Below, piece after piece: positions 4,208 to 64,000 of a DNA stretch of 64,000 nt. Source of the DNA: an uncultured bacterium (lineage in GTDB: Bacteria > Omnitrophota > Omnitrophia > Omnitrophales > Abzuiibacteriaceae). The notes under the pieces were generated by a model. That model saw only the letters and a program-made list of their open reading frames with translations, made no database searches and was not told the origin of the DNA. Each line of letters opens with the position of its first letter. Position 1 is the first letter of the stretch. The position numbers and the translations under genes are program-made. The DNA lies in contig CAYLXA010000006.1 of the NCBI GenBank assembly GCA_964387845.1, positions 135,040 through 199,039 of the forward strand, given 5' to 3'.

Positions 4208-4216
4208 TAATTAGAT

Positions 4217-4681
4217 ATGACACGACGCGTTGCCCTCAAGCCTGCCGCCATCCTTCTGATTCTAGGTATTTTTTTGGCTTTCCCGTGGCTGAGCGGCTAC
4301 ACGTTTCTTCAATATATGAAAATGAAGCACAGTGTTACGATTCACGGTTTTTGGTATCCTTCTTATTTCCCGATCGGAAAGTTTTATGTGCGTCAATTAA
4401 ATGCGGATTGGAAAGATGATTTTCGAATCCAGTCCGGGACGCTTGAAGTCCAATATAATCCGTTTCTGTTTTCAATTTCGCGCGGTGGTGTTTCGTTGAA
4501 AGGGCGCGATCTGGAGGTTTCGGTGAAGAAATTGAACTCAAATCTCAAAGTGAAAGGGCCGTTTGTCGTAAACCGGTTTGATGCCAAGCTGGAATTGCGG
4601 CCTCGCGCAGAGCCCTTCATCCACTCGCTTGAAATTGACTCGCCGGTGATTCAATTCAAAATCAACGGGCAATCGGCATGA
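4217..4681 (+). CDS. hypothetical membrane-anchored protein
   Basis: An N-terminal TM/signal-anchor (AAILLILGIFLAFPWL) is present. Its stop overlaps the next start (ATGA). Confidence 0.4.
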   Translation: MTRRVALKPAAILLILGIFLAFPWLSGYTFLQYMKMKHSVTIHGFWYPSYFPIGKFYVRQLNADWKDDFRIQSGTLEVQYNPFLFSISRGGVSLKGRDLEVSVKKLNSNLKVKGPFVVNRFDAKLELRPRAEPFIHSLEIDSPVIQFKINGQSA

Positions 4682-5400: not shown

Positions 5401-5506
5401 AACCAGGCTCTGCCCAAGTCAAGTATTGAAGCTTTTTTTCCGAAATATGAAGCACTGCTCTTGGGTTATTTTAAAGAGTAAATTTTTCGGGTCTGGGTGA
5501 TGATTT

Positions 5507-8393: not shown

Positions 8394-8406
8394 GGAAAGG
8401 GGAAAC

Positions 8407-9495: not shown

Positions 9496-10790
9496 GCTCA
9501 ACTCAAGAAGCGAAAACCGGTTCTGAAACGGCCAACACCGCTGTGAAGTTGGTCGGCGAGTCTGTTTCTGTCCTTGGGCTTGGAAAAAGCGGATTTGAAA
9601 GCGCGAAGTTTCTTGCCAAGCGCGGCGTTCAAGTGTTTGCCAGCGAATCCAAATTCTCGCCGGAATTACTCAAGCGCAAAGAAGAGCTCGAACAGCTTGG
9701 TGTCCGCGTTGAAATCGGAAAACATTCCATCCGATCGATCGCGCGGGCCGATCGTGTCATTATTTCTCCCGGGATCCCGCCGTCTGCGCCGGTCTATGAA
9801 TCGCTTCGGAAAAAGAAAATCCCGATTTGGAGCGAAATCGAACTGGCATATCAATTTTGCCCGGCACCCATTATTGCCGTGACCGGGACGAACGGAAAAA
9901 CGACCGTCACATCATTAATTGCGCGAATTTTATGCGCCAATCAGTTTCATGCGATTTCCTGCGGCAACATTGGCAACCCGCTGATCGGTGAAATCGAAAA
10001 TTTAACGGATCAATCCATTGCTGTCACTGAGGTTAGTTCGTTTCAACTCCAAAACATTGATCAATTTCGTCCCTATATCGGTATCGTGCTTAATCTCACC
10101 GTTAATCACCTAGACTGGCACGCCAATTTTGCAGAATACGCGGCAGCCAAATGGAACTTGTTTAAAAATCAAAGGCCGCACGATTATGCGTTTTTAAATG
10201 CCGACGATATTGAAAGCATGCACCGCGCGGATTTGATTCAATCGCAAAAAGTTTATTTCAACGGCGGCGAGCACGAAAACCCGAATTTTGCGGCGTGCCT
10301 TGCAGTGGCGAATTTGTACCGGCTGGATGATCACAAAACGCGAAAAATCATCGATGAATTTCCCGGCATTGAGCATAGGCTCGAAAAAGTGCCGTCCCGG
10401 GATGGTTTTCGGTACTTTAATGATTCGAAATCAACGACAATCGCATCGCTCGGTTGGGCGCTTGACCGGATGAAAGACAAAGCCGTATTAATCATGGGCG
10501 GTAAGCATAAAGGCGGTGATTTTTCGGTCTTACGCGATAAAATAAAATCAAAAGTTCGTTTTTTGGTTTTAATCGGAGAGGCCGCGCCGGTTTTGGAGAA
10601 AGCCTTTGGAAGAATTGTTAAAACCATGACGGCGCCCAATTTGGAACAAGCGGTCCGGCAGGCGCGTGCGGCGGCTTGCGCAAGTGACGCCATTTTATTT
10701 TCGCCGGCGTGTGCAAGTTTTGATATGTTCGAAAATTACGAAGACCGGGGCCGGAAGTTTAAAGCCATTGTTCAAAGCTTTCAGAAATAA
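9492..10790 (+). CDS. murD: UDP-N-acetylmuramoylalanine--D-glutamate ligase
   Basis: 'VTGTNGKTTVTSL' P-loop. ATG at 9492 overlaps the mraY stop (ATGA). The ORF-track start at 9438 is probably an upstream extension. Confidence 0.88.
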   Translation: MSSTQEAKTGSETANTAVKLVGESVSVLGLGKSGFESAKFLAKRGVQVFASESKFSPELLKRKEELEQLGVRVEIGKHSIRSIARADRVIISPGIPPSAPVYESLRKKKIPIWSEIELAYQFCPAPIIAVTGTNGKTTVTSLIARILCANQFHAISCGNIGNPLIGEIENLTDQSIAVTEVSSFQLQNIDQFRPYIGIVLNLTVNHLDWHANFAEYAAAKWNLFKNQRPHDYAFLNADDIESMHRADLIQSQKVYFNGGEHENPNFAACLAVANLYRLDDHKTRKIIDEFPGIEHRLEKVPSRDGFRYFNDSKSTTIASLGWALDRMKDKAVLIMGGKHKGGDFSVLRDKIKSKVRFLVLIGEAAPVLEKAFGRIVKTMTAPNLEQAVRQARAAACASDAILFSPACASFDMFENYEDRGRKFKAIVQSFQK

Positions 10791-10830
10791 AACCGGCCAA
10801 CATTAATCTTCATGATTATTTGAGATCCTC

Positions 10831-11940
10831 ATGTCACAAGAATCCAGAAGCATTTTTATTGTGATGCTTCTTTTAATTGCCGTCGGCGTGATCATGATCT
10901 ACAGCGCTAGCGCGGTGTTTGCGGACCAATTGTTCGGAAGTTCCACTTATTTCCTGCGCCGTCAGCTTTTTTATTTAATTTTGGGCCTTCTGGCGTTCGG
11001 TGTTAGTTACTATGCAAACCCCGAATTTTTAAGAAGTCACGCAAAGGGGCTCATGATTTTCGCTTTTTTCATACTGCTCCTCGTTTTTATTCCCGGGCTC
11101 GGCCATTCGGCGGGCGGTGCGCGGCGCTGGATCGGTTTCTCGTTTTTTACATTCCAACCTGTTGAATATGCGAAACTGGCGGTTTGTTTGTATCTATCGG
11201 ACTACCTCACCCGAAAAATGAAATTGATGGTAACGGGGGACCATATGGTTTTAGTTCCGCCTATCGCAATACTGCTTTTTATGCTCTCACTTTTAATCGC
11301 GCAGCCTGATCTTGGTTCAACTATTTTTGTTTTAATGATCGCAGGCATTTTGTTCATTTTGGCCGGCATCCGGCTGAGATATATTGCCATGGCAGTGGTT
11401 CCGGTCGTTTTTGCCATCGTTATTTTGATCATCAAGGCGCCGTACCGGATGAACCGCATCGCGGCTTTCTTGGATCCCTGGAAGGACCCGCGCGGCACGG
11501 GATTTCAAATTATTCAATCGTTTCTTGCGTTTTCATCCGGGGGCGTGAAGGGTGTAGGGCTCGGCCAAAGCACCCAAAAATTATTTTATTTGCCGCAAAG
11601 CTACACCGATTTTATCTTTTCAATTATTGCCGAAGAGCTTGGTCTTATCGGCGCGTTGTTTGTGGTTTCGCTCTACGGTTGTTTTTTTGTGATGGGCGTC
11701 CGGATTGCCAACAAAACACACGACCCGTTTTACCGCCTCTTTGCTTATTCACTGGTGCTGATTATTACACTGCAGGCTTTGATCAATATTCTGGTGACAA
11801 CCGGGCTTGTGCCGACCAAAGGGCTTCCGCTTCCGTTCGTCAGTTACGGCGGTACTTCACTTATTTTTAATATGATCGCAGTCGGTCTTCTGCTGGCGAT
11901 TGACCGTCATATTGTTTATAGATCTCCCGCTTATCGTTAA
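10831..11940 (+). CDS. ftsW: SEDS-family peptidoglycan glycosyltransferase / cell division protein FtsW
   Basis: A 10-TM SEDS protein placed between murD and murG as in canonical dcw clusters. Confidence 0.85.
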   Translation: MSQESRSIFIVMLLLIAVGVIMIYSASAVFADQLFGSSTYFLRRQLFYLILGLLAFGVSYYANPEFLRSHAKGLMIFAFFILLLVFIPGLGHSAGGARRWIGFSFFTFQPVEYAKLAVCLYLSDYLTRKMKLMVTGDHMVLVPPIAILLFMLSLLIAQPDLGSTIFVLMIAGILFILAGIRLRYIAMAVVPVVFAIVILIIKAPYRMNRIAAFLDPWKDPRGTGFQIIQSFLAFSSGGVKGVGLGQSTQKLFYLPQSYTDFIFSIIAEELGLIGALFVVSLYGCFFVMGVRIANKTHDPFYRLFAYSLVLIITLQALINILVTTGLVPTKGLPLPFVSYGGTSLIFNMIAVGLLLAIDRHIVYRSPAYR

Positions 11941-51103: not shown

Positions 51104-51243
51104 TGAAACCAATATTGAAGTTAGCAGTAGTAGTTTTGCTTTTGGGTATGTTGGCTGGATGCGGCGAAACATTCCGCGGTATCGGAAAAGACACATCCAG
51201 GATTTGGTACGGCACCAAAACAATTTTTGTTAGTCAAGAATAA
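51103..51243 (+). CDS. entericidin A/B-like micro-lipoprotein (46 aa)
   Basis: Not in the ORF track (<60 aa). GGAGG RBS. ATG overlaps the upstream TGA. Lipobox 'LAGC' followed by 'GETFRGIGKD', resembling EcnA/EcnB. Confidence 0.45.
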   Translation: MKPILKLAVVVLLLGMLAGCGETFRGIGKDTSRIWYGTKTIFVSQE

Positions 51244-51253
51244 CGAGGCCCCA

Positions 51254-51910
51254 TTGTTACACCGATTAATTTCATGCGTGGTAATCATATCGGTCTTGAT
51301 TTCAGGCTGCGTGCAATACAAGCGCCCGCCGATGATGATCAAAGTGCCGAGCTACTACGACAATCAAATCTCGCTCAAAGATTTGACGCTGGTTGCTGAT
51401 CCTTACATTGAACGCGCGAAGATCGAGCATTTATTTAACACCAATTTGCTTGAAAAAGGTTTTCTTGCGATCCAGCTGATTGCTTTCAATGACGGAGACG
51501 GCGTTTTTGACATGTCGCGTTCTGCAGTCGTTTTAGTGCGTGACGATGGGATTGTTTTCCCGCCGGTTCCGCCCAAACAGGTAAGCAAGAAGGTCTTGCG
51601 TCGCACATCGCTCCGGATGTTGGGGTGGGGATTCGCCGGACTTATCGTTTTGAGCATTCCGCTGTCGCTGGCTGCGGGCGTTGATTCTCGGCGCGCCAAT
51701 CAGGGAATCCGTCGCACCCTTAAAGAGAATGTGCTGAGCTCTCACGAAATCGGCGCCCGTGAAGTTGTAAGTGGTTTTTACTTTTTCAAGATTGGAAAGT
51801 CGCATGGCCATAGCCAGGGCTCGCTTGCGCATCAGTACCGGTTCAAAATTGATCGATTGTTAGAGGTTGACTCCGGAGTAGAATACGAGTTTAATATCGG
51901 GATAAATTAA
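51254..51910 (+). CDS. hypothetical lipoprotein
   Basis: A TTG start gives 'MLHRLISCVVIISVLISGC' (lipobox LISGC). The ORF track extends it to 51227. Confidence 0.4.
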   Translation: MLHRLISCVVIISVLISGCVQYKRPPMMIKVPSYYDNQISLKDLTLVADPYIERAKIEHLFNTNLLEKGFLAIQLIAFNDGDGVFDMSRSAVVLVRDDGIVFPPVPPKQVSKKVLRRTSLRMLGWGFAGLIVLSIPLSLAAGVDSRRANQGIRRTLKENVLSSHEIGAREVVSGFYFFKIGKSHGHSQGSLAHQYRFKIDRLLEVDSGVEYEFNIGIN

Positions 51911-51928: not shown

Positions 51929-52001
51929 GGGCCAGTAGCTCAGCTGGGAGAGCGCTACATTCGCATTGTAGAGGTCACGAGTTCAATCCTCGTCTGGTCC
52001 A
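51929..52001 (+). tRNA. tRNA-Ala (anticodon CGC)
   Basis: Manual cloverleaf: acceptor GGGCCAG/CTGGTCC with a G3:U70 pair, D-arm GCTC-AGCTGGGA-GAGC, anticodon stem CTACA/TGTAG, loop TTCGCAT, T-arm ACGAG-TTCAATC-CTCGT, discriminator A. CCA is not encoded. Confidence 0.85.
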
Positions 52002-52008
52002 AATTTCT

Positions 52009-52292
52009 GAAGCCGGTAGCTCAGCCCTCACGCTACCATGAATATTCACGTATTATTTTAATGAAGCGTGAGGGTAGTCCTGATTTCTAATGAATAAATG
52101 ATTGTCATTTATTGATGAAAATCAGGGCAGCTGGGAGAGCGCTACATTCGTATTGTAGAGGTCAGGACTCATTTTCATTGAGGGATCCAGACGGTCAATA
52201 GGAAATGAGTTCAGCTCCTGAGCCTGATCAAGAATTCCTTAGTCGATTTTTACAGTAGCTCAGGGGCGGGGGTTCGGTCCCCCTTCGGTCCA
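52009..52292 (+). other. tRNA-like mosaic / pseudo-tRNA region with nested perfect hairpin insertions
   Basis: It contains a 5' tRNA fragment (GCCGGTAGCTCAG), a D-loop-to-variable-loop copy almost identical to the tRNA-Ala but with anticodon loop TTCGTAT, a third GTAGCTCAG copy, and a T-arm/3'-end-like GGGGGTTCGGTCCCCCTTCGGTCCA. Two inserts with perfect 8-10-bp inverted repeats interrupt it. Confidence 0.4.
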
Positions 52293-52422
52293 AAGTTAGT
52301 TTTACACCTAAAATTAGCCTCGAATTAATCTCACCTAACGTCTTAAGCTATCAGATAAAAGAGCCGAAACATTATCCTACAAGCTTGGAGTGTCTTTAAG
52401 CGGTTAAACGTAGGATAAAATT

Positions 52423-53295
52423 ATGAGCTACTACCGCATTTTAGGTTTTGATAAAGAGCCTTTTTCCACAAGCCCGGACCCTAACTTTTTTTATCTTACC
52501 CGCGAGCACGAAACGGCGCTGACCAATGTTTTAATCGAGCTCAGATTGCGCCGAGGTTTGTCGGTTGTTTTGGGGGATGTTGGAACCGGCAAAACAAGTC
52601 TTTCCCGGAAATTAGTTCAGTGCTTGCGTGAGCGGAGCGACTTTATATTTCATATTGTTTTAGATCCCTGCTTCGAGAATGAGCATCTTTTCTTAACCTC
52701 CTTAATTCGCAATTTGGGAATCGTTGTCGATCAGCCGCATGAACAAGACCGAACTCTGCTTCGGCACACGGTTTTAGACTTAAAAGAGGCTTTAGAAAAG
52801 TACCTTTATCAGAAGTGCGTTATCGAAAATAAAACAGTGGTTTTGATTGTCGACGAGGCGCAGAAGCTGAGCGAATCCTCGATGGAAATGCTGCGTGTTA
52901 TACTTAATTACGAAACCAACGAAAACAAATTGTTGCAGCTCGTCCTTTTGGGCCAAATGGAGCTTCATGCAAAAATCGTGAATATCCCGAATTTTTGCGA
53001 CCGGATTAGTTTTAAATATTCGCTCAACCCGCTGGATTTCAAGGAAACGAAAGACATGATCCGCTACCGGATCAAGCAAGCAGGCTACAACGCGCCGTCC
53101 CATCTTTTTTTAGATGATGCAATTCAGCTGATTCACAAAGTGTCGCGCGGATATCCGAGAAAAATCACGATGCTGTGCCATCGCTCGCTCAAGAAGCTTG
53201 TGATGCAAAGTAAATGGTCGGTCGACGAAAATTTGGTGCGCGAAATCGTGAATGAAGATATTCATTCCGGCTGGCTTGCGCCGACGCTGCATTAA
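52423..53295 (+). CDS. ExeA/GspA/MshM-like AAA+ ATPase (secretin-associated)
   Basis: N-terminal 'YRILGFDKEPFSTSPDPNFFYLTREHETAL' and Walker A 'GDVGTGKTSL', Walker B 'LIVDEAQ'. It lacks a C-terminal peptidoglycan-binding extension. Confidence 0.7.
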   Translation: MSYYRILGFDKEPFSTSPDPNFFYLTREHETALTNVLIELRLRRGLSVVLGDVGTGKTSLSRKLVQCLRERSDFIFHIVLDPCFENEHLFLTSLIRNLGIVVDQPHEQDRTLLRHTVLDLKEALEKYLYQKCVIENKTVVLIVDEAQKLSESSMEMLRVILNYETNENKLLQLVLLGQMELHAKIVNIPNFCDRISFKYSLNPLDFKETKDMIRYRIKQAGYNAPSHLFLDDAIQLIHKVSRGYPRKITMLCHRSLKKLVMQSKWSVDENLVREIVNEDIHSGWLAPTLH

Positions 53296-53312
53296 GGATT
53301 TTAAAATCCGAT

Positions 53313-54032
53313 ATGGGAGACGAAACACCGGAACAGCAGCTTTTAAAGCTGATTGAGCAGCCGCAAGCGAGCGGTGCTCAGCCGGCGGGGGATTCTAAAG
53401 ATCCCAAAGCGGATACAGCGGCAGCGGCAAAAGCAAAGAAAGGTCTCAATTTTAAGAGCCTGCTGACACCAAGCGGATGGAAAGGCGTTTTGTCCTATGC
53501 AAAGGAACAAGGCGCAACGCTGGCAAAGCAAAAGCCGGAAGTTTACAGTCTCCGAAGTTTTAACCGTTTTTTTCGGATCGCGCTCGGCGCCGGCGGAATA
53601 GTAATGTTTTGTTACATTGCTTATGCGGCTTACGTCATGAATAGTGAGTTTCACGAGCTGTCTGATTCGACACAAAAGGAAATGGCTGATCTGCCCATGT
53701 CGGGCGGGCGAATGTTGGATCCGAATTTTTTTGAGGATATTGCGAAACGGAATATTTTTGCACCGATGGAAAAAAAGCTGGAGCCCGAGCTTGCGCTTGA
53801 GTCTGGAGTTAGCAAAGCGGCTCTCGTTGAAATGGCAAAAGATATCAAGCTAACGGGGATTTCCGTAAATCCAACGGATGAGAGCCGCACATTTTGCATG
53901 ATCGAAGACCTTAAGAAAAACACGACAAGTTTTTTAAAAGTTGGCGACGGAATCGCCGGATTTACGATTAGCAAAATCGGTCCTGACAGCGTTGAGCTCA
54001 AATACCAAAAGGAAGCGATCGAGCTGAGATAA
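53313..54032 (+). CDS. hypothetical bitopic membrane protein, possible PilP/GspC-like secretin partner
   Basis: One TM (FFRIALGAGGIVMFCYIAYAAYVM) and a C-terminal beta-rich '...SFLKVGDGIAGFTISKIGPDSVELKY' resembling secretin-binding HR/PilP domains. It overlaps the secretin start (ATAATGA). Confidence 0.3.
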   Translation: MGDETPEQQLLKLIEQPQASGAQPAGDSKDPKADTAAAAKAKKGLNFKSLLTPSGWKGVLSYAKEQGATLAKQKPEVYSLRSFNRFFRIALGAGGIVMFCYIAYAAYVMNSEFHELSDSTQKEMADLPMSGGRMLDPNFFEDIAKRNIFAPMEKKLEPELALESGVSKAALVEMAKDIKLTGISVNPTDESRTFCMIEDLKKNTTSFLKVGDGIAGFTISKIGPDSVELKYQKEAIELR

Positions 54033-55687
54033 TGAAAAGAACAATTTCACAAAAAAAGCACTTACTCATCATTGTATTAACGGTTATCGTTTCGGCAATG
54101 CCCGTGAGCTCATTCAGCGCAACGTTACCGGCTCCGGAAACAGCACAAGTCGCAGCGCAGCCGTCAGAGAAAGCCGAGCCATTACAGATTGCCTCAGCCG
54201 CATCGACAACCGGGCTTGATAAAACTATTTTTCTAGATCTTCGCGATATCAACGTTATCGATATTCTTAAGTTTTTAGCTTTGGAAGGGGATTTGAATAT
54301 TGTGACGAGCAAAAACGTCCAGGGCCGATCAACGCTGCTTTTGCGTGACGTAAAAATCCGCGATGCGCTCGACATTATTGTTTTATCAAACCAGCTTGCC
54401 TACGACATGAGGAACAGCATTATTTACGTTATGACCGAGCAGGAGTATTTGCAGCTTTACGGAAAAAATTTTAGCGATCAGAAAAAAATCAAAACTCGGG
54501 TTTTGACGTACGCCAAGCCCAGTCACGCGCTTGCGGCGCTGCAATCAATTCAAAGCGCTTTGGGAAAAGTGATCATTGACGAGGAAACCGGCTCGGTGAT
54601 CATGATCGATACTACCGAAAAATTATCCGAAATGGATGCTCTGTTGGATAAGCTGGAAACCAAAGTTGAGACCAAATCCATCACACTTCAATATGCGATG
54701 GCGAAAGATATCGAAACGCAGCTGAAGCCGAAATTAGATGTCAAATCCGTTGGTTCGGTTATTGCGGATGAACGGTCCAATCAAGTGACCATCACAGCGT
54801 ATCCGGGCCGGATGGAAGAAATTGTGGAGCTTGTGCAGTCGTTGGACGCTAAAACCAAAGCGGTTTTGGTGGATGTTCGCATTCTGCAGTTAACCATTAA
54901 TCCGAAGTACGATGCCGGAATCGAGTGGGAAAGAGTATTTACGAACAGTAAGAACGAACTTTTCAAAAGCCTCGATTTCAACCATGCATTTCCGATCGCT
55001 TCAACAGTTTCATCCAGCGCGGCTCTGGGCTCGGTCGGCCAATACACGATCGGAAACTTAACGACGGATGAATTTACGGCCGAATTAAGATTTCTAAAGC
55101 AAATCGAGCGCACCAACGTTGTTGCCAGTCCGCGGATGATGATTCTGGATCGCCAAGAAGCGAAGATTAATATCGGTGACCGGATTCCGTATGTTATTAC
55201 CACAACAACCGGAACGGGAACGAACGTGTCGGTTAGTGAGGACATTCAATTTATTGACGTTGGCCTTAATCTTGTTGTGACGCCGGTTATTAATGACGAG
55301 GGGTATGTGACGATGAAAATTCGTCCGGAAATTTCAAGCCGCACGGGAACGCTTACAACACCCACAGATAACGCAATCCCGATTGTTAATACAACGTTTA
55401 TCGAAACCAATATCGTTGTAAAGGATGGAGTCACCATTATCTTGGGCGGCCTCAGGCGGGATGAATTAACCGAATCAAACAAAGGCGTCCCGTATTTGAT
55501 GGATGTGCCCTTCATCGGCAACGCGTTTAAAAGCAGGGCTGAAACAACGCGAAAAACGGAGATTGTTATTTTCATCACGCCCAAAATTGTCAGCGGAACT
55601 GAAACAATGGCGTGGCAAAATCCGCCTTTTAAACCGGCAAAGTTAGAGATGATTCCACAGGCGCAGAAAAACAAAAAAATATCATGA
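54032..55687 (+). CDS. secretin (GspD/PilQ/MshL family outer-membrane channel)
   Basis: Signal peptide, N-domains, and a C-terminal secretin core ('VVASPRMMILDRQEAKINIGDRIPY', 'VVTPVINDEGYVTMKIRPEIS', 'IILGGL...VPYLMDVPFIGNAF...EIVIFITPKIV'). Confidence 0.8.
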   Translation: MKRTISQKKHLLIIVLTVIVSAMPVSSFSATLPAPETAQVAAQPSEKAEPLQIASAASTTGLDKTIFLDLRDINVIDILKFLALEGDLNIVTSKNVQGRSTLLLRDVKIRDALDIIVLSNQLAYDMRNSIIYVMTEQEYLQLYGKNFSDQKKIKTRVLTYAKPSHALAALQSIQSALGKVIIDEETGSVIMIDTTEKLSEMDALLDKLETKVETKSITLQYAMAKDIETQLKPKLDVKSVGSVIADERSNQVTITAYPGRMEEIVELVQSLDAKTKAVLVDVRILQLTINPKYDAGIEWERVFTNSKNELFKSLDFNHAFPIASTVSSSAALGSVGQYTIGNLTTDEFTAELRFLKQIERTNVVASPRMMILDRQEAKINIGDRIPYVITTTTGTGTNVSVSEDIQFIDVGLNLVVTPVINDEGYVTMKIRPEISSRTGTLTTPTDNAIPIVNTTFIETNIVVKDGVTIILGGLRRDELTESNKGVPYLMDVPFIGNAFKSRAETTRKTEIVIFITPKIVSGTETMAWQNPPFKPAKLEMIPQAQKNKKIS

Positions 55688-56691
55688 AAGAAAATAATAC
55701 CAAGTTTTTAATACAAGCACTCACCAGAATGGCTCTGATTTTATTAATCGCTACAGGCGCGGCCCGTCCCGGCTCGGCATTTTGGCCGTTTGATACCGGT
55801 GAAGAAAAACAAAGCGAAGAGTTTAGTGCTCCGACAGCCTCACTTCCGACACCCGAACAGAAAAGGGAAGAATCGCTCAAGATTGATACGATTCTAAGCA
55901 CGCTAAACGAGTCCCTGGAAGAAAACAAAAAACTCCGGACCGATGCGGAAAACGCGCAAGAGCAGCTGAACCGATCCTCAATCGAGAACAACGTACTTCG
56001 AAGCCAATTGCGCACATTGCAAGCAGAAGCCGATTCGTACAAAACCGAGCTCACCAAGCACGCAGAAGAAACAAAAAAAAACATTCAAAAGCTTGAGCAG
56101 GAAGTTGGTCGTCTTCAAATTGAGGCCAAAAAAGCAGAAGAGATGAAGGAATTTGCCGAAGAAAGCATGGCCTACACCGAAGCGGAAAATCAAAAGGTGA
56201 GAAAGCTGCTTGAACAATCTATTCTTGAAAGCGAACGGGACACATACGTGAAGCTGATTTCGGAGTCGGAGATAAAGGCGAATCGAGCTGCGGAAAAGCT
56301 GATGACAGCAAAGCGCCAGAATGAACGCATGAGATCCGAACTGGCTTCGGCTTATTATAATTTGGGCAATATGCTGGCCGGGTCGGCGCAATATCGGAGC
56401 GCTTTAACGCAATACAAAAAGGCGCTCAAACTTAACCCAAATGATGCGTGGACGCATTACAATTCGGCCATTATTTATGATTATTATTTAAACAATAAAG
56501 AAAAATCGCTCGCACACTACAAGAAATATTTAAGCTTAGAACCTGCTGAAAAAGAGATCAATAAAGTGCGCGAGCGCGTTTTAGAAATGGAATTACTGAA
56601 TCCTGTCACGCCCGGCCAGCCGCTCAAGTCTGATTTTGACAAATATCAAAAGGATTTGAACAAGCCCTACGTCATCAAGGCAAACGGTTAA
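55684..56691 (+). CDS. secreted coiled-coil / TPR-repeat protein (MshN-like position)
   Basis: Signal peptide, a long E/K/Q-rich coiled coil, and C-terminal TPRs ('AYYNLGNMLAGSAQYRSALTQYKKALKLNPNDAWTHYNSAIIY'). ATGA overlap with the secretin gene. Confidence 0.5.
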   Translation: MKENNTKFLIQALTRMALILLIATGAARPGSAFWPFDTGEEKQSEEFSAPTASLPTPEQKREESLKIDTILSTLNESLEENKKLRTDAENAQEQLNRSSIENNVLRSQLRTLQAEADSYKTELTKHAEETKKNIQKLEQEVGRLQIEAKKAEEMKEFAEESMAYTEAENQKVRKLLEQSILESERDTYVKLISESEIKANRAAEKLMTAKRQNERMRSELASAYYNLGNMLAGSAQYRSALTQYKKALKLNPNDAWTHYNSAIIYDYYLNNKEKSLAHYKKYLSLEPAEKEINKVRERVLEMELLNPVTPGQPLKSDFDKYQKDLNKPYVIKANG

Positions 56692-56772
56692 TTTTTTTAA
56701 CCCACACCCGGCCTTACACCTAAAGCCACATTCTAAAGCATTTTTTTAAGATATTTTTATCTGATAAAAAAA

Positions 56773-56801
56773 TTGCATTGAATTTCAGGTTATGATACTA
56801 T
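56773..56801 (+). promoter_or_regulatory. putative sigma70-type promoter (TTGCAT-17 nt-TACTAT) upstream of the FGE-like paralog pair
   Basis: A hexamer match with 17-nt spacing in the 247-bp AT-rich gap. A GNRA hairpin CCTGCC-GAAA-GGCGGG (56884-56899) lies between the putative promoter and the ATG at 56939. Confidence 0.3.
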
Positions 56802-56938
56802 TTTTTTGTTGTCCCATAACCCTAAATTAAACTGCTGAATTAACATATGGCGATTGGGAAATTTCTGACTTGAAAAAGGCAAACCTGCCGAAAGGCGGGG
56901 ACGCAAAACCGAAGTTCTAAATCTCATCAAGGAGAGAC

Positions 56939-58726
56939 ATGAAGGCTGGGTTACCAAGCTGCTTGCGCAATGCGCACACCATGCGTATTGACGCTCAAAT
57001 AAATTGCAAATTTTTCTTCTATGCGATCAGTCTTTTCGTCTTCCTTTTTGGCGCGTCTCCTAAAACCGTTTGGGCCAACAACCTCAGCATTTCAAACGTC
57101 ACACTGACAAGCCAGGATTCCGCAAACGACACCGTCGCGATTCAGTTTGATATTTCGTGGGACAATTCATGGCGGAACCAGACCAATTGGGATGCGGTTT
57201 GGATATTTATTAAATACACAACAGAAACCTCAACGCCGCAGCGATGGTTTCATGCAATTCTACGCAAGACTTCCGCAGCAGCATCCCAGACAAATCCTTC
57301 CGGATATTCTCAAGGAAGCGGAACTGGTCTGGACATTCTTTTGCCGGATGATAATACGGGTGCGGATACCGGTGTTTATGGCGCGTTTCTTTACCGCTCA
57401 GAGATCGGAACTGGCAGCGTTTCAACCACCAGCGTGAAGCTTTTGTGGGATTATGGCGAAAACGGCTTGGCAGATACCGCGACACCGATTGTGCAAGTAT
57501 TCGGCATCGAAATGGTTTATGTTCCACAGGCGTATTTTGTAGCCGGCGATTCCACTAACTCAGCCAGTAATCCGCCGGGCGGATTTGTGGACGGCGGAAG
57601 CGGTACCTATGCTGCTTACACAGTGAGCAGCGAAACTCAGATTGGGTTAGGATCTCCGACGACTGGATGGATTCAATCGCGCTCCGGCATGTCGCCCGCG
57701 GATGATTTTTCAAGCGCTGCTCACAAAAATCTCCCGATTGCATATCCAAAAGGCTACAACGCGTTTTACATGATGAAATATGAACTGACACAAGGTCAAT
57801 ACGCCGAATTTTTAAACACGCTGGAACGTAAAGGCCAAGTCAACTTAGTCGGTGCTACCGTGTCGGCTGATACGATTGCAAATTATTATGTCATGAGCGC
57901 CGAATCTCAATTATCAAGAAGCAACCGAAATACGATTACAGCTCCTTCGTTTGGAAACGGCAGTATCAATCCTATTGCGTTTTCGGTCTCAAGGCCTTAC
58001 CGGGCTATGAACTATCTTGCTTGGATGGATTTGGCGGCCTATGCCGATTGGGCTGCTTTGCGCCCGATGTCTGAGTTGGAGTATGAGAAGGCGGCGCGCG
58101 GTTTTTATGGCTATCAAGCTCCATTACCTGCTTTAAGTTTGGGATTTGCTTGGGGAACGACCGATTTGGTAATTGCAACGACTCCGAATGCATCGGAAGA
58201 TAGTGGAACGGAAGGAATCAACGGAAATGCAGCTTACGGTAATTATACCTACGGCGCTGGCGATGGTTCAACGGGTCCGCTCCGTGTGGGCATTTTCGCA
58301 AGCGGAACCGCGACGGCTACTCGCCCGCTGAGCGGTGCCGGCTTTTACGGCGCGATGGAGCTCTCGGGGAATGTCGCAGAACAGGTTGCGTCCATAACAG
58401 ATACGCTGGCTGCCAACATCCGCGGCGGCAGGGATTTTGACGGATCACATGGCAACGGCACAGTGGTGACTGGTTCTGCGTGTTCTTGGGTCGGGCGGGC
58501 CGACGTGAAGCAATGGCCGGGGTCGTTAACGACATTTTCAGATGGTAACTGCAGCGGCGGCGGAACGGTTCGGCTCATCTATTCACGCGGCGCTATCCGG
58601 CGCGGTGGCTCGTGGAGCAGTGTATCAGCGCGGCTGCAGCTTTCAGACCGCCTAGATTCAGGAAGCGTGCCGAGTTTTACGCGTTCCAGCGCGCATGGCG
58701 GCCGGTTGGTGAGGACTGCGCCATGA
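56939..58726 (+). CDS. secreted protein with N-terminal conserved domain and C-terminal non-catalytic FGE-sulfatase-like (SUMF1/GldJ-type) domain, paralog 1
   Basis: AAGGAGAGA RBS and a signal peptide. 'ELTQGQYAEFLNT', 'RPYRAMNYLAWMDLAAYADWAALRPMSELEYEKAARG' and 'GGRLVRTAP' follow the FGE-sulfatase fold pattern, but no Cys pair is present. Confidence 0.6.
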   Translation: MKAGLPSCLRNAHTMRIDAQINCKFFFYAISLFVFLFGASPKTVWANNLSISNVTLTSQDSANDTVAIQFDISWDNSWRNQTNWDAVWIFIKYTTETSTPQRWFHAILRKTSAAASQTNPSGYSQGSGTGLDILLPDDNTGADTGVYGAFLYRSEIGTGSVSTTSVKLLWDYGENGLADTATPIVQVFGIEMVYVPQAYFVAGDSTNSASNPPGGFVDGGSGTYAAYTVSSETQIGLGSPTTGWIQSRSGMSPADDFSSAAHKNLPIAYPKGYNAFYMMKYELTQGQYAEFLNTLERKGQVNLVGATVSADTIANYYVMSAESQLSRSNRNTITAPSFGNGSINPIAFSVSRPYRAMNYLAWMDLAAYADWAALRPMSELEYEKAARGFYGYQAPLPALSLGFAWGTTDLVIATTPNASEDSGTEGINGNAAYGNYTYGAGDGSTGPLRVGIFASGTATATRPLSGAGFYGAMELSGNVAEQVASITDTLAANIRGGRDFDGSHGNGTVVTGSACSWVGRADVKQWPGSLTTFSDGNCSGGGTVRLIYSRGAIRRGGSWSSVSARLQLSDRLDSGSVPSFTRSSAHGGRLVRTAP

Positions 58727-60408
58727 TGAGGCAAATATTACTGCCGTTTTCTATGTTTGTTTTTTTAGGTTTTCAGGCGTCCTACCTGCACGCTAACAAT
58801 TTGAACATTTCAAACGCTAAAATTGCAAGCCAGGATACTTCGAATGACACCTTGACCATCCAATTCGATATCAGTTGGGAAAACTCATGGCGCGATGGAG
58901 AAAATTTTGACGCAGTTTGGGTTTTTATAAAATACAGCACGCAGGTGGATCATTGGATTTCCACTGAGCAGCCGACTGGGTGGCAGCACGCAGTTTTAAA
59001 ATCATCAGGAACAAATCCAAGCGGATATTCTCAAGGATCCGGAACTGCGCTGGACATTGTGGTGCCGAGTGACCGGCGCGGCTTTTTTCTGCAGCGCTCC
59101 AGTACCGGCGCGGTAGGTACGGTGAACACCACAAGTATTAAAGTTTTATGGAATTACGCAGAAAATTCTGTGTCGGACACAGAAGCCAATTCTGCTTACA
59201 CCCATATCAAAGTATTTGGAATTGAAATGGTTTATATTCCGCAGGCCGGTTTTTACACTGGAGATGGTAGTGATGGTCTTAATGGGGAATTTGAGTTCGG
59301 GGGCTCGACGGCGTCAAGGCCGGCGTCGGTCAATAGTGAGCAAGAGGTTGTGTTTGGAACGGGTACTTTTTCGAATCAATGGTATTACAACACTGATTTG
59401 TCAGGGGATGACTACACATCCGGGACTATCTTCACATTAGCTGAAAGTTTCCCAAAAGGCTTTCAGGCGTTTTACGCCATGAAATACGAAATTACGCAGG
59501 GCCAGTACGTCGAATTCTTAAACACATTGCAGAGAAGCGCTCAAAAGAGCCGGGTGGCAAGTGATCCTGTTAATGCAATTCCGAATTATTATGTGATGAG
59601 CGCCGAATCTTTATTGACTCGCAGTGACCGTAACACGATTACAGCGCCTTCTACGGGCAATGGCTCCTATCATCCTGTCAAGTTTTACGCCCAAAGGCCT
59701 TACCGCGCGATGAATTATATGAGCTGGATGGACCTGGCGGCATTCGCTGATTGGGCGGCTCTTCGGCCGATGTCGGAGCTCGAGTATGAAAAAATAGCAC
59801 GGGGCCCATTGTATCCGGTGGATGGCGAGTATTCTTGGGGAAGTACGGTCGTTTCGTTTGTGGATATAAACGGGGTTGGTGATGAGCTAGGCACAGAAAA
59901 CTTGGATGTGGGCAAATCACCAACGCCTGCCGCCAATTACAGCAACACGGCTTTTGCAGGGGGCGACACCGGCACAGGCCCGTGGCGTGTGGGGATTGTG
60001 AGCGGCGCCCCTCCTGAGCTTACTCTTTATGACCGCGCCAACAATGGAATGGGTTACTACGGGAATGCCGATTTAACCGGCAATGTCTGGGAGCGGGCCG
60101 TCACGGTTGGGAATTCGGCGGGGCGGAATTTTGCGGGTACGCATGGAGATGGAAAGCTTATATATAGCAGCAGCGATACAACCTACATTAATTATTTCGG
60201 AAACGCGACCAACTTGGATTGGCCCGGCATGGATACGACCGACATCAATAGGGGTATTACGGGTGCGCATGGAAGCGGGTTTCGAGGTGGCGCTTGGACC
60301 ACAACGTCGCTCAATTCATTACAAGTTTCAAATCGCGCAGAAGCCGCGCGGGTAGATACCACGCGCGGTTCGTCGTATGGTGGGCGCTTGGTCAGGACAG
60401 CGCCGTAA
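58723..60408 (+). CDS. secreted protein with non-catalytic FGE-sulfatase-like domain, paralog 2
   Basis: ATGATGA overlap with paralog 1. It shows the same architecture ('ANNLNISNAKIASQDTSNDTLTIQFDISWENSWR', '...RPMSELEYEKIARG', '...GGRLVRTAP'). Confidence 0.6.
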   Translation: MMRQILLPFSMFVFLGFQASYLHANNLNISNAKIASQDTSNDTLTIQFDISWENSWRDGENFDAVWVFIKYSTQVDHWISTEQPTGWQHAVLKSSGTNPSGYSQGSGTALDIVVPSDRRGFFLQRSSTGAVGTVNTTSIKVLWNYAENSVSDTEANSAYTHIKVFGIEMVYIPQAGFYTGDGSDGLNGEFEFGGSTASRPASVNSEQEVVFGTGTFSNQWYYNTDLSGDDYTSGTIFTLAESFPKGFQAFYAMKYEITQGQYVEFLNTLQRSAQKSRVASDPVNAIPNYYVMSAESLLTRSDRNTITAPSTGNGSYHPVKFYAQRPYRAMNYMSWMDLAAFADWAALRPMSELEYEKIARGPLYPVDGEYSWGSTVVSFVDINGVGDELGTENLDVGKSPTPAANYSNTAFAGGDTGTGPWRVGIVSGAPPELTLYDRANNGMGYYGNADLTGNVWERAVTVGNSAGRNFAGTHGDGKLIYSSSDTTYINYFGNATNLDWPGMDTTDINRGITGAHGSGFRGGAWTTTSLNSLQVSNRAEAARVDTTRGSSYGGRLVRTAP

Positions 60409-60615
60409 ATTTTTTTAGAAAACCCCGGCCTTTAGCTTTGGAGAGGGTTGAAGGCAGGATGGAAAGTAAAAAAATCGTAACCTCTGGCCCCAGTCCGGAG
60501 GAAGCGAAAGCAAGACCCAATTGACACCGGCTTTGGAGAGGAGGCGTTTAAAAACGCTTTGAGTAGTCGTCCCAGTTTAAAAAGGAAAATTATAGGTCGT
60601 CCCAATAACGCCTGG

Positions 60616-63600
60616 TTGAAGAGATTAGCTTGGCTGCTGATCTTGACACAGGCACTTTCTGCGCCTTATCAAGCCCGTCTTGAAGCGGCTTACTATGGCG
60701 GCGGCAGCTACTCAGGCGATGATGTTGTCCAGGTCACCCAAGCGCAGTATATGGGCGGTTCCTATGCGGGTTATTCATCTGCAACCAGCTCTGCCACATC
60801 CGTCGGCGCCAACAAACTGGCTTTTGCCATTACGCCTCCAACCAGCTCGGTCAATCAAGCCTTCACGGCAACTGTTCAGGTCCAAGATGCCAGTGGCGCC
60901 GTAGTTTCCACAGCAGAGAATTCTGTAACCGTAGCGCTATCAAGCAATCCGACGAGCGCCACCTTGGGTGGTACTTTGACCGCCCCCGCTTCCTCCGGTA
61001 CGGCAACCTTCAATACGCTTTACATTAATCAACCCGGCACATACACATTATCGGCCATGGCAAGCGGCCTCACATCGGCAACTTCATCGTCATTTAGTAT
61101 TGTTTCGGGAGAGTTTAGGGTTCAGGGCTCGCTCGGTTACGCTGCGTCGAGCAATGCATACTATGTCAATTGCTGGATTGAAAACATTTCAGGCACGATT
61201 CTGACGGGCCCGACCTCTTGCGCAGCGGTAGTTTATGCGCCCGATGGATCAACCCACGCCACGTTGACGACCGTTAATTTTGGAAGCCCGGATTCTGACG
61301 GTGTTTTTCGTACAACCGCATGGGATCCGGGCGCTAATTATTTGGATGCCTATACAGCCCGGTTGACTGTCGTCTATAACAGCGCAAGCTACAGTGCCGT
61401 TATTGGTTTAAATCCAGCGCTCAACCGAGGCATTGATGAAATTTACACATCAACCTCAGGAATCAGTGATATCGCAAGCGATGTCACGGATATCGCAGCC
61501 GCAGTCGGCGTTGGTCAAGCGCAGACGGTTTGGCAGAAGGCCGATAGCATCCTCACCTCCATCAGCAAAGCCAACTGGGATGATTTGAAAGTTCTTACCG
61601 AAGCCGGAATTAATTGGGCGGACGTCAATAACCAGAGCCGGGCCGGGATCAACTGGGACGACCTGCGCTCTCTGACCAAGGCCGGCATCAACTGGAACGA
61701 CATCATGAAGTTCAGCCTCTCGGGAATCAATTGGGATGACTTGGTGAAACTCACCAAAGCCGGAATCAACTGGAACGATTTCGGCACGCTCACGAAATCG
61801 GGCGTTAACTGGGACGACCTCAATAGAATGACCAAGGCCGGCATCAACTGGACGGACATTGCCGTATTGAGTTTGAAGGGTGTTAACTGGGCGGACATCT
61901 ATACTTTGTCACGTTCCGGCGTAAACTGGGATGATATCAAAGCGCTCTCCAAAGCAGGTGTCAACTGGTCTGACATCGGCCGTCTCTCCAAATCAGGCGT
62001 TAACTGGGACGATTTTAGCAAGCTTTCTAAGGCCGGTATCAACTGGTCCGACATCGGGCGTTTGTCAAAGTCAGGCGTTAACTGGGATGATTTAAAGGTG
62101 TTGAGCAAGGCAGGTGTTTCGTGGGCCTCGCTCGGTTATGAAGTGACTTGCGGCGCTGCGATTGATACGGATGGGGTCAGCTACATTTATACGGGTCTAC
62201 GGAGGAACGGGGCGCCGGCGCCGTTCACGACGGACTGCGAGTCGATGGCAGTTGCGGATGATATTCAAATTTCAGTACTGAGTGCTGATGCAGGTTCTAC
62301 GGTAGACACGATTGACGATAACACGGGTACGGGGATTGACAGTTCGACGTGCCGGTATGAAACAGTCAATCAATATATCCAAACTCATTTAACGGAAGAT
62401 TACGTGATTAGTTGTTATGTTGTGTTGAATGGAATTGGATATGAAGGCCTGACCACTTATAGTCCGCAAGCCCATTATGTCGCCACTGCAGTGAATTGGA
62501 CAGATATCGGCCTTTTGGCGGATGCCGGCATCAATTGGGCGGACATCGGTCGGCTCTCCAAGTCGGGCGTCAACTGGGATGATTTGAAAGTATTTTCAAA
62601 GGCGGGTGTCAATTGGTCCGACATCGGCCGTCTCTCTAAGTCGGGGGTCAATTGGGACGATATTGGCAAACTTTCCGCCGCCGGCATCAACTGGTCTGAC
62701 ATCGGCCGCCTCTCCAAATCCGGCGTCAATTGGGACGATTTGCGTGCACTCACGAAAGCCGGGGTCAATTGGACCGATATAAAAGCACTGGCCGCGGCGG
62801 GCAATTATCGGTTTGGCGGATATTTTACATCGTTTAGCCATGTTTCGCCGTCGGCTACGGGCGGTACGTTTGCGGTTTATTTTGAGCGCAATGGATCGAT
62901 CGTGCCTCCGGCCAGTTGGTGTTCGGCAGCCACCTTCACGGTGACTAGCGGAAGCTGTGGCTCGTTTGGCTTATTCCCTTACGATTGCTCGAATGCGTGT
63001 TGCTATGATGTGGATTCGTGTAGCTCACAGCCTACCAGCACGGAAGTATCCTTAAGCTATGGCGGTCGAAGCTATTCTGGTCAAGTACGGTTTGATGTGC
63101 TGGGAACTGCAGGGGTCAACTGGAATGATATACAGGCGTTCTCCAAATCCGGTATTAACTGGACGGATATCGGCCGCCTTTCCAAATCCGGTGTCAATTG
63201 GGATGACCTGAAAGCGCTTTCCAAAACCGGCATTAATTGGACGGATATCGGCCGCCTCTCCAAATCCGGCGTCAATTGGGATGATTTTGGGAAATTATCA
63301 AAAGCGGGAATTAATTGGAGCGATCTCGGACGTCTCTCGAAATCCGGTATTAATTGGGATGATTTGCAAGTTCTTACAAAGTCAGCCATTAACTGGACGG
63401 ATCTGGCGGTGATGACAAAAGCTGGGAGTAACTGGATGGACAATGTCAACTGGATGAATTTAGCCGCTCTTACAAAATCCGGGGTCAATTGGACCGACAT
63501 CAAAATCATGAGCGATACCAATATTAACTGGGATGGCATGAAGGCGCTTTCAGAAGGCGGGGTCAATTGGACGGATATCGGTGTATTGACAAAATCAGCG

Positions 63601-64000
63601 ATTAACTGGGATGATTTAAAAACGCTCTCTAAAACAGGTGTCAATTGGGACGACTTAAAGTCTCTCTCTCGGGCCGGCGTTAACTGGACGGACATCGGAA
63701 AAATGAGTAAATCCGGCGTCAATTGGGATGATCTCAATAAACTCTCCAAGGCCGGGGTGAATTGGCAAGGCATTGAGACCTTGTCAAAAACCGGCATCAA
63801 TTGGACGGACTTAGGGGCTCTGACAAAAGCTGGCATTAACTGGAATGATCTTCTCTCACTCAGTAAAACAGGCGTTAATTGGGATGATCTCTCAAGGCTC
63901 TCCAAAGCCGGTGTCAATTGGGATGACTTGAATAAACTCAGCAAGGCCGGTGTTAATTGGGATGATTTGAATAAACTCTCTAAGGCCGGGGTCAATTGGC
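60616..64000 (+). CDS. giant secreted repeat protein (3'-truncated by the window), with 11-residue G(V/I)NW(S/D/T)D(I/L)xxLSK(S/A) tandem repeats
   Basis: My own frame-1 translation is open from 60481 to the window end, which is why it is absent from the ORF track. Inferred TTG start 60616 gives 'MKRLAWLLILTQALSA|PYQA' (signal-peptide-like). There is a ~320-aa N-terminal Ser/Thr/Ala-rich region, then three repeat arrays separated by Cys-containing inserts. The start codon is uncertain. Confidence 0.6.
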   Translation, partial: MKRLAWLLILTQALSAPYQARLEAAYYGGGSYSGDDVVQVTQAQYMGGSYAGYSSATSSATSVGANKLAFAITPPTSSVNQAFTATVQVQDASGAVVSTAENSVTVALSSNPTSATLGGTLTAPASSGTATFNTLYINQPGTYTLSAMASGLTSATSSSFSIVSGEFRVQGSLGYAASSNAYYVNCWIENISGTILTGPTSCAAVVYAPDGSTHATLTTVNFGSPDSDGVFRTTAWDPGANYLDAYTARLTVVYNSASYSAVIGLNPALNRGIDEIYTSTSGISDIASDVTDIAAAVGVGQAQTVWQKADSILTSISKANWDDLKVLTEAGINWADVNNQSRAGINWDDLRSLTKAGINWNDIMKFSLSGINWDDLVKLTKAGINWNDFGTLTKSGVNWDDLNRMTKAGINWTDIAVLSLKGVNWADIYTLSRSGVNWDDIKALSKAGVNWSDIGRLSKSGVNWDDFSKLSKAGINWSDIGRLSKSGVNWDDLKVLSKAGVSWASLGYEVTCGAAIDTDGVSYIYTGLRRNGAPAPFTTDCESMAVADDIQISVLSADAGSTVDTIDDNTGTGIDSSTCRYETVNQYIQTHLTEDYVISCYVVLNGIGYEGLTTYSPQAHYVATAVNWTDIGLLADAGINWADIGRLSKSGVNWDDLKVFSKAGVNWSDIGRLSKSGVNWDDIGKLSAAGINWSDIGRLSKSGVNWDDLRALTKAGVNWTDIKALAAAGNYRFGGYFTSFSHVSPSATGGTFAVYFERNGSIVPPASWCSAATFTVTSGSCGSFGLFPYDCSNACCYDVDSCSSQPTSTEVSLSYGGRSYSGQVRFDVLGTAGVNWNDIQAFSKSGINWTDIGRLSKSGVNWDDLKALSKTGINWTDIGRLSKSGVNWDDFGKLSKAGINWSDLGRLSKSGINWDDLQVLTKSAINWTDLAVMTKAGSNWMDNVNWMNLAALTKSGVNWTDIKIMSDTNINWDGMKALSEGGVNWTDIGVLTKSAINWDDLKTLSKTGVNWDDLKSLSRAGVNWTDIGKMSKSGVNWDDLNKLSKAGVNWQGIETLSKTGINWTDLGALTKAGINWNDLLSLSKTGVNWDDLSRLSKAGVNWDDLNKLSKAGVNWDDLNKLSKAGVNW
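61567..62125 (+). repeat. in-frame 33-bp tandem repeat array 1 (~17 units) inside the giant protein gene
   Basis: Units such as GGCGTTAACTGGGACGATTTTAGCAAGCTTTCTAAGGCC translate to G-V/I-N-W-x-D-I/L-x-x-L-S/T-K-A/S. Confidence 0.8.
62488..62805 (+). repeat. in-frame 33-bp tandem repeat array 2 (~9-10 units)
   Basis: The same unit, e.g. 'AGINWADIGRLSKSGVNWDDLKVFSKAGVNWSDIGRLSKS'. Confidence 0.8.
63101..64000 (+). repeat. in-frame 33-bp tandem repeat array 3 (>=27 units, continues past the window)
   Basis: 'GVNWNDIQAFSKSGINWTDIGRLSKSGVNWDDLKALSKTGINWTDIGRLSKS...' up to the window end. Confidence 0.8.

Follow-up and report, generated by a model that had tools for sequence, protein, structure and literature searches.

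A 13-residue tryptophan repeat in a predicted surface protein of Omnitrophota, encoded beside a PilQ-like secretin locus

Large non-pilin adhesins of type IV pili such as PilY1/PilC and MshQ are Sec-exported proteins of about 1000 residues or more that are encoded in pilus clusters and displayed via the secretin; MshQ has a LamG domain. The Omnitrophota are widespread, uncultured and ultra-small bacteria that are thought to be attached to other cells or to prey on them. In this phylum, genes for a type 4a pilus and an F-type ATPase are co-located, and a role in attachment and surface motility has been proposed (PMC10066038, Seymour et al. 2023). Loci resembling type II secretion systems lie upstream of the giant Omnitrophota proteins called "Archaeovorins" and "Dockerin-type" proteins, for which an adhesion role was proposed (10.1101/2023.11.21.568195, West-Roberts et al. 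2023). These giants have at least 30,000 residues, with transmembrane segments, SecA-like domains, enzymes, dockerin/TSP3 repeats and beta-helix tubes (10.1101/2023.11.21.568195). Here we describe a gene at the end of a 64,000-nucleotide stretch of DNA from an uncultured Omnitrophota bacterium (assembly GCA_964387845.1, contig CAYLXA010000006.1, positions 135,040 to 199,039 of the forward strand; hereafter the window). It encodes a large, probably exported protein built mainly from a 13-residue repeat centered on an Asn-Trp (NW) pair, and it lies downstream of a conserved cluster that includes a secretin closest to PilQ.

On the + strand, frame 1 is stop-free from 60481 to 64000 (1173 codons), starting right after a TAA at 60478-60480, in agreement with the first-pass annotation, which had described a frame open for more than 3.5 kb to the window edge. 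Neither a stop nor a frameshift was found across those 3.5 kb. The gene is missing from the open reading frame (ORF) list, as had been noted, because the frame runs off the window and has no end within it. No ATG lies close to the 5' end; the probable start is a TTG at 60559, with GGAGG 14 nucleotides upstream, leaving 1147 codons in the window. This start is also the gene call on Logan contig L001 (SRR15237813), an independent assembly that is identical to window positions 51977-62730. An alternative TTG start at 60616 would give the N terminus MKRLAWLLILTQALSAPYQA, and the residue numbers used below for the arrays are counted from it. Within the window, the gene is laid out as follows:

60559..64000, + strand: repeat-protein gene, 5' part; open frame, TTG start as called on Logan contig L001, 3' end outside the window
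60559..60690, + strand: signal peptide, probably Sec, read from the sequence (basic n-region, hydrophobic LAWLLILTQAL, ...LEAA before YYGGG)
60691..60807, + strand: N-terminal segment of about 40 residues with two [YF]xGG[SA]xxG motifs, predicted disordered by AlphaFold2 (predicted local distance difference test score, pLDDT, 28-36)
60808..61110, + strand: predicted immunoglobulin (Ig)-like beta-sandwich domain 1, all beta (AlphaFold2 pLDDT 77-94)
61114..61410, + strand: predicted Ig-like beta-sandwich domain 2, all beta (AlphaFold2 pLDDT about 75-87)
61414..61566, + strand: linker into array 1, helical or degenerate repeats (AlphaFold2 helices, low confidence)
61567..62151, + strand: array 1, residues 318-512, 15 units of 13 residues, the last one degenerate (GVSWASLGYEVTC); Tandem Repeats Finder period 39/78
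62152..62487, + strand: insert 1, about 112 residues, non-repeat, 5 Cys
62488..62799, + strand: array 2, residues 625-728, 8 units
62800..63111, + strand: insert 2, about 104 residues, Cys-rich, contains CSNACCYDVDSC; possibly a diverged Ig-like domain 2
63112..64000, + strand: array 3, from residue 833, with 8 units, a 6-residue half unit, 14 further units and one additional unit cut by the window end

The repeat unit is 13 residues or 39 nucleotides long, with a local super-repeat of 26 residues or 78 nucleotides, based on Tandem Repeats Finder and a table of Trp-to-Trp spacings. Periods of 11 and 22 residues had been proposed before, although the motif written out in that proposal itself has 13 positions. 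The consensus is G-[IV]-N-W-x-D-[ILF]-x-x-[LM]-[ST]-x-[AST]. Spacings of exactly 13 residues between Trp occur 43 times, whereas 2000 shuffles averaged 1.4 and never exceeded 7. We counted 46 NW motifs and one degenerate SW unit in the window, short of the at least 50 copies estimated earlier. The division into three arrays by two non-repeat inserts was correct, and both Cys-rich strings quoted for the inserts, "TCGAAIDTDG" and the one shown above for insert 2, are present there. Array 3 contributes 24 NW motifs when its half unit and the unit cut by the window edge are counted. The half unit (63424-63441) reads "GSNWMD" before "NVNWMNL", and the same half-unit landmark, as "GVNWxExINWDNL", is conserved in orthologs.

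Trp is found in all 46 units of the window, Asn at position 3 in 45, Asp at position 6 in 42 and Gly at position 1 in 40; of the two residues first described as invariant, Trp is so and Asp is not. The pattern extends to 263 units taken from across the family, where Trp is again present in every one (263/263), position 1 is Gly or Asn in 227, position 3 is Asn in 257, position 2 is Ile or Val in 247 and position 7 is hydrophobic. A signal at a lag of two units is weak in the window protein. We also considered a universal super-repeat with a fixed number of units per turn and rejected it, as identity is flat across lags in the longest arrays of the family; periods of 2, 3 and 6 units are lineage-specific duplications.

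The proposed alignment of units at the nucleotide level, intended to measure homogenization, gave a mean identity of 56% between units, with 39% at third codon positions and 65% at the first two. Each unit differs from every other in DNA, and the closest pair reaches 92% over 39 nucleotides. For the conserved G, N, D and S, every synonymous codon is in use (for example, AAC 22 times and AAT 22 times for Asn). This synonymous divergence between units argues for selection on the protein and not for recent slippage or assembly collapse, and the repeat units are, to judge from their sequences, old.

These data also bear on whether the frame could be an assembly artefact, stitched together from collapsed or chimeric repeats, or a decaying pseudogene. 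Such an origin would fit the break of the independent assembly inside array 2, at window position 62730, and the location of most relatives at contig ends. Against it, that independent contig matches the window without a difference up to its break, collapse is unlikely given that no two units are identical, and the frame stays intact for 3.5 kb, its protein sequence is conserved and orthologs share its architecture. We therefore regard an artefact as extremely improbable. An exact search of a metagenome collection with 79 nucleotides, aimed at extending the gene, had no match, and a genome collection held relatives at 61% identity or less only. Omnitrophota homologs of the repeat protein are 41-52% identical to it. 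The gene is real and comes from a Candidatus Omnitrophota genome; as one part of a joint explanation in which we have middling confidence, at most its 5' two-thirds would lie in the window. Minus-strand ORFs also overlap the arrays (61515-61898, 61899-62108, 62475-62804, 62596-62841 and 63081-63995; 304 residues or fewer); they resemble stop-free shadow frames and not genes, because related loci show the same pattern.

We then placed the protein among its relatives. Searching 5.8 billion proteins, we found the same architecture in eight of the 120 best matches, and those of the eight that carry a name are all Candidatus Omnitrophota; the other matches cover the Ig-like N-terminal domain only. 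A word-indexed profile search returned only short fragments, and an exhaustive search with a 12-unit hidden Markov model was more informative: among 1.84 billion cluster representatives, it matched 507 proteins at an E value of 1e-3 or below, 34 of them at 1e-30 or below. All of the 507 that have an organism name are Candidatus Omnitrophota. The family is rare, because these 507 are all the matches in 1.84 billion representatives. With each GTDB species represented by one genome, a scan yielded 12 loci; in the locus labels, ten read Omnitrophota or Omnitrophica and three read uncultured bacterium, one of the three Planctomycetales.

Array size varies between species from about 20 to more than 230 units. 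The longest relatives have, in the parts seen, more than 3267 residues with 231 units (L006), more than 3056 residues with 209 units (L008), more than 2736 residues with 187 units (L007) and more than 2588 residues with 177 units (L010). In L008, 206 Trp-to-Trp spacings are exactly 13, with no insertion or deletion after about residue 520, and L007 has 182 spacings of exactly 13. Complete relatives are shorter (P0010, 868 residues; P0021, 900; P0001, 1292) and finish in a coiled-coil-like region of 160-220 residues with the conserved end ...VV[KQ]SW[LY]E.... Databases list relatives as "hypothetical protein", "LamG domain-containing" or "carboxypeptidase-like regulatory domain-containing", and P0001 has an N-terminal LamG domain. 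The NW unit also occurs as a module of 8-14 copies in other large surface proteins from metagenome contigs (P0168, P0171, P0173, P0175, P0194 and P0189), which carry GLUG/M26_N-like, NBR1-Ig and InlB-B-repeat domains. In some module proteins, the unit has length variants of 14-15 residues. One further locus holds an NW-unit module gene (L014, 8001-10844), with STT3 and several other large surface-protein genes nearby.

The repeat had been reported as matching no known family, and our searches bear this out: no Pfam or NCBIfam cut-off was passed and no PDB chain matched. Because the Pfam, NCBIfam and PDB searches yield no such hit, the unit maps onto no well-characterized family. The Pfam models for pentapeptide, CW_binding_1, SLH, Sel1 and LRR repeats gave nothing at E values of 0.01 or below on the whole protein, and a 52-residue segment matched LRR_10 only, at 18.5 bits against a cut-off of 30. 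With isolated arrays and E values up to 10, no dockerin, EF-hand, LRR, choline-binding or other repeat model rose above its cut-off. The NCBIfam scan had no meaningful match for the repeat protein, and a profile search of all PDB sequences returned only a run of myc tags, an artefact at an E value of 0.01. The literature searches turned up no relevant account of a Trp repeat of 13 residues, and the NW repeat is unmentioned in the Omnitrophota papers searched, the giant-protein ones among them (10.1101/2023.11.21.568195, PMC10066038). The 13-residue unit thus holds as new, judged by sequence against every library searched.

Several candidate families were tried and rejected. Against a cut-off of 60 bits, Lysostaphin_N (PF25533) scored highest of the Pfam models on the arrays: 39 bits for the whole protein, where no stretch was significant by itself, and 22.5 bits for an array of 156 residues. 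An S-K-A stretch is common to the repeat and the lysostaphin N-terminal region; that region we take to be built of 13-residue units as well, presumably without the Trp, Asn3, Asp6 and hydrophobic positions. Ntox33 (PF15533) scored 28.0 bits against a cut-off of 28.4 with about a third of the model covered. A segment of P0001 scored 28.7 bits, but over profile positions 8-30 of 65 only and repeatedly, which marks a periodic partial match and not a domain. RecG_dom3_C, HTH_26 and DMC1 gave sub-threshold partial matches driven by periodicity.

Two further likenesses concern the unit itself. The string "G-[IV]-N-x-x-D-[LI]-x-x-[LM]" can be likened to the second half of the dockerin calcium loop and its exit helix, a lead only. 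A dockerin or EF-hand origin was rejected: Pfam had no match at E values up to 10, at the places where loop ligands 1, 3 and 5 would be expected the residue varies or is Leu, and the unit has 13 residues where a dockerin unit has about 22. Some BlaR1/M56-family proteins share the period and a G-hydrophobic-x-x-[DE]-[DY]-[IV]-x-x-[LM] skeleton in C-terminal 13+13 repeats. Four such proteins (P0186, P0188, P0204 and P0206) have arrays of "AGFSxDDIxELAV" plus "RGIKPEYVKAMKE" that score about 1e-28 against the INW profile. Their repeats differ from the NW units in having no Trp or Asn, two alternating unit types and a membrane-sensor architecture, and they too have no convincing Pfam repeat family. 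BlaR1/M56 and NW units may form a wider class of 13-residue capped-helix repeats, or may have converged.

We predicted the structure of the array with AlphaFold2 in two ways. A model of 12 units with an in-register pseudo-alignment had a pLDDT of 47, and a model of residues 21-525 with 14 orthologs had a pLDDT of 50-58 in the array and confident Ig-like domains. Both runs predict the same local structure in each unit, a 9-residue helix at positions 4-12 and a 4-residue connector formed by positions 13, 1, 2 and 3. The solenoid suggested at first did not appear; AlphaFold2 gives one short helix per unit without confident packing.

We read the family-wide conservation against general helix-capping rules. 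Asn3, just before the helix, would be the N-cap, and Asp6 its N3 partner in a capping box. Ile/Val2 and Ile/Leu/Phe7 would be the N' and N4 residues of a hydrophobic staple. Gly1 could be the C' residue of a Schellman-type C-cap in a left-handed conformation; it is mainly swapped for Asn, which, beside Gly, is the residue favoring left-handed conformations. This reading would account for all conserved positions except Trp and would not need calcium binding. Trp4 and Leu/Met10 would then be left for packing or binding.

The unexplained Trp invites an alternative in which the array is itself a binding surface, with a ladder of Trp and neighboring Asp, Asn, Ser and Thr gripping a polysaccharide such as a host or prey cell-wall or surface-layer (S-layer) glycan, akin to other aromatic-rich cell-wall-binding repeats. 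Trp is the sole absolutely invariant residue, and capping does not need it. The 8-14-copy arrays in other multidomain surface proteins would suit a portable binding module, and Omnitrophota are themselves proposed to be attached or predatory. However, no carbohydrate-binding family matched, an invariant Trp could just as well lie in the core of a stack of helices, and more than 200 copies far exceed the usual need of binding modules. We consider a glycan-binding ladder possible but rather doubtful.

The N terminus is better defined than the array. The signal-peptide-like sequence described earlier is present (KRLAWLLILTQALSAPYQA), and 14 of 14 aligned orthologs have the same layout, ending in A-x-A before [YF]xGGS. 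From this layout, a signal peptide for the periplasmic step is probable. Right after it, the window protein and aligned orthologs have one or two copies of the [YF]xGG[SA]xxG motif, and this segment could be a sorting or processing signal. What had been taken for a Ser/Thr/Ala-rich region of about 320 residues resolves in the AlphaFold2 model into a disordered stretch of about 40 residues, two folded Ig-like domains and the linker, at which position orthologs have variants of "TDTINWxDIxxIK".

Foldseek matched the tandem Ig-like domains to FdeC and SiiE, both adhesins, and to SbsC, Sap and SbsB (E values about 1e-5; probability 1.0 for FdeC, SbsC, Sap and SiiE). Big/invasin-type Pfam domains occur in hundreds of the homolog matches to this region, while Pfam on the domains themselves found only sub-cut-off scores (Glyco_hydro2_C5 and CarboxypepD_reg). 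Based on these models, we are confident in predicting a tandem Ig-like fold of the adhesin/S-layer type. Insert 2 may be a further, diverged member: hhalign aligned it with a profile of Ig-like domain 2 at P=0.005 over 73 colinear columns, with reversed controls at 0.3-0.5, which is suggestive of a diverged copy. The value for insert 1 was P=0.13, and BLAST of the inserts against Ig-like domain 2 was not significant (E values 0.06-0.24).

The S-layer proteins SbsC, Sap and SbsB among the top structural matches, together with the giant "coat" proteins proposed for Velamenicoccus, could also suggest an S-layer-like coat protein whose place near a secretin cluster has no functional meaning. The Pfam scan found no SLH or other anchoring domain for such a coat. 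The gene order also stays constant while the secretins themselves are only 42-59% identical, and we find a coat protein quite improbable.

This gene order brings in the neighboring cluster, whose members in the window are:

52423..53295, + strand: ExeA-like (AAA_22) ATPase, at the start of the conserved cluster (Pfam AAA_22 4.8e-19; L013 ortholog 69% identical)
53313..54032, + strand: GspC-like protein (Pfam T2SSC and NCBIfam GspC_delta, both below cut-off; kept in L003, L008 and L013)
54032..55687, + strand: secretin, closest to PilQ (Pfam Secretin 1.3e-48; kept in 5 related loci)
55684..56691, + strand: TPR protein (Pfam TPR families; kept in 5 loci)
56939..58726 and 58723..60408, + strand: two FGE-fold proteins (Pfam FGE-sulfatase 31-33 bits, partial)

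The best model for the secretin is the NCBIfam type IV pilus PilQ model, at 246 bits and below its 284-bit cut-off. The repeat gene does not lie directly 3' of the secretin, as first stated; the TPR gene and the two FGE-fold genes intervene (55684-60408). The link to the secretin module nonetheless gains support from related loci, as the order GspC-like gene, secretin, TPR gene, one or two FGE-fold genes and repeat gene was found by tblastn in all five relatives with upstream flanking sequence. We argue for selection on linkage, since this order is kept although the relatives' secretins share only the 42-59% identity with the window secretin given above.

The two FGE-fold proteins are paralogs (45% identical) with N-terminal signal sequences, a beta-rich N-terminal region and the conserved C terminus GGRLVRTAP. 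Neither has a Cys after its RGGSW/RGGAW motif. An assignment to GldJ, GldK or PorK was rejected, with no NCBIfam family at E values of 0.01 or below for either protein. Just before the ExeA-like ATPase, 51227-51910 encodes a 227-residue protein with a lipoprotein-like N terminus (...LISGC), for which there was no Pfam or NCBIfam match and no homolog in the related loci. Housekeeping and beta-oxidation genes lie further upstream. The apparently unrelated segment 42432-51103 holds a patatin/cNMP-binding/AAA_31 fusion protein and a beta-oxidation set (thiolase, 3-hydroxyacyl-CoA dehydrogenase, enoyl-CoA hydratase, acyl-CoA ligase and S33 hydrolase).

Downstream, five relatives have flanking sequence (L002, L004, L009, L011 and L012). 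In all five, the next gene encodes a conserved coiled-coil-like protein of about 460 residues that has a membrane helix at its C terminus. Four of them continue with an F-type ATPase operon; L011 is without it. All five have a PilB/GspE-type ATPase with an MshEN domain. In L004 this whole downstream region spans 2655-11331. The operon has the non-canonical order alpha, epsilon, c, delta, gamma, beta, and the relatives' alpha and beta subunits reach the ordinary cut-offs for atpA and atpD.

With machine parts on both sides, namely secretin and TPR genes upstream and, downstream in relatives, those for a coiled-coil protein anchored in the membrane and for an assembly ATPase, the protein could instead stay in the envelope as a periplasmic or outer-membrane scaffold, ruler or tether of the pilus/secretin machine. 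The presence of a Sec signal only, with no recognizable signal for outer membrane secretion, would agree with this. A fixed periplasmic width fits poorly with arrays whose length varies more than 10-fold between species, arrays above 2600 residues are very long for a cell of about 0.2-0.3 µm, and the Ig-like head resembles adhesin and S-layer modules. An envelope scaffold therefore seems unlikely to us.

At about even chances, we favor a reading in which the array is a stiff stalk of species-variable length and the Ig-like domains, possibly with the Trp ladder, contact a surface or cell, the protein being carried by the secretin/pilus-like machine. The product would be exported by the Sec pathway. 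A short flexible N terminus would be followed by the two Ig-like beta-sandwich domains and then the long 13-residue arrays, in which every unit would form a short capped alpha-helix from position 4 to 12 and a Gly-Ile/Val turn would lead on to the following one. As in complete relatives, a C-terminal coiled-coil-like domain of 160-220 residues would end the protein. The stalk would hold the Ig-like head off the cell, the PilQ-like secretin/type IV pilus-like machine next door would deliver or mount the protein at the cell surface, and its role would be attachment to surfaces or to host or prey cells. A part as cargo or fibre of the secretin, as proposed in the first-pass annotation, is suggested here by synteny, the signal peptide and the domain types.

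Several observations weigh against this reading. Synteny indicates linkage and not a route through the secretin, and Sec export alone would lead to the periplasm. The 3' end of the gene and the downstream genes of this genome lie beyond the window, and the Logan contig stops at 62730. AlphaFold2 confidence in the array is low (pLDDT 47 and about 50-58), with no confident packing or solenoid, and Foldseek with the array model found nothing significant (best E value 0.024, TM score 0.25), a low-confidence model being a weak test of fold. The capping assignment rests on general helix-capping rules. Finally, tblastn found neither insert in the 12 related loci; the window array is therefore interrupted, unlike theirs.

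The NW family provides a concrete, conserved candidate part of a pilus-related locus that is suspected to act in cell contact. It is unusual for a protein to be built from a 13-residue unit kept strictly in register over more than 200 copies, and the repeat is an uncatalogued one that AlphaFold2 cannot pack, with invariant residues at what would be helix-capping positions. Genes of this kind break assemblies and run off contig ends, and so are missed by ORF lists.

Compared with the adhesins of type IV pili, the protein has no sequence or domain match to PilY1 or MshQ and no beta-propeller, and no pilin genes are visible in the window; a point of likeness to MshQ is the LamG domain of P0001. 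FdeC, invasin, intimin, SiiE, SbsC and Sap share with it the tandem Ig-like domains and the idea of a repetitive stalk that sets length. Stalks of Ig adhesins are made of Ig-like domains of about 90-100 residues, whereas the stalk proposed here would be made of 13-residue helical units.

The symbiotic ATPase/type 4a pilus loci (PMC10066038) are similar in that the repeat gene of relatives lies between the PilQ-like secretin and the F-type ATPase operon with its PilB/GspE-type ATPase; that paper mentions no repeat protein. This setting allows a bolder proposal, in which the units form a new repeat class, with one fully capped short helix per unit and more than 200 units without insertion or deletion, and the protein is the surface "leg" or fibre of an Omnitrophota attachment apparatus made of type 4a pilus and F-type ATPase. 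By analogy, its role could be likened to that of the huge leg proteins in Mycoplasma mobile, whose gliding machine runs on an F1-like ATPase. We think this proposal, analogy included, unlikely to hold as a whole.

The Archaeovorins and Dockerin-type proteins offer a close parallel, as large, repetitive, predicted extracellular proteins of the same phylum whose genes come immediately after a conserved locus with a secretin. The NW family differs in size, from about 870 to more than 3267 residues, and none of the domains of those giants was found in it. The upstream loci differ as well, with ExeA-like, GspC-like, secretin, TPR and two FGE-fold genes here and gspD/E/F, rcpC and rotamase in the published loci. 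A repeat-rich surface protein beside a secretion or pilus locus is thus known from Omnitrophota; what is new is the repeat, its extreme regularity and its place in a pilus/ATPase locus.

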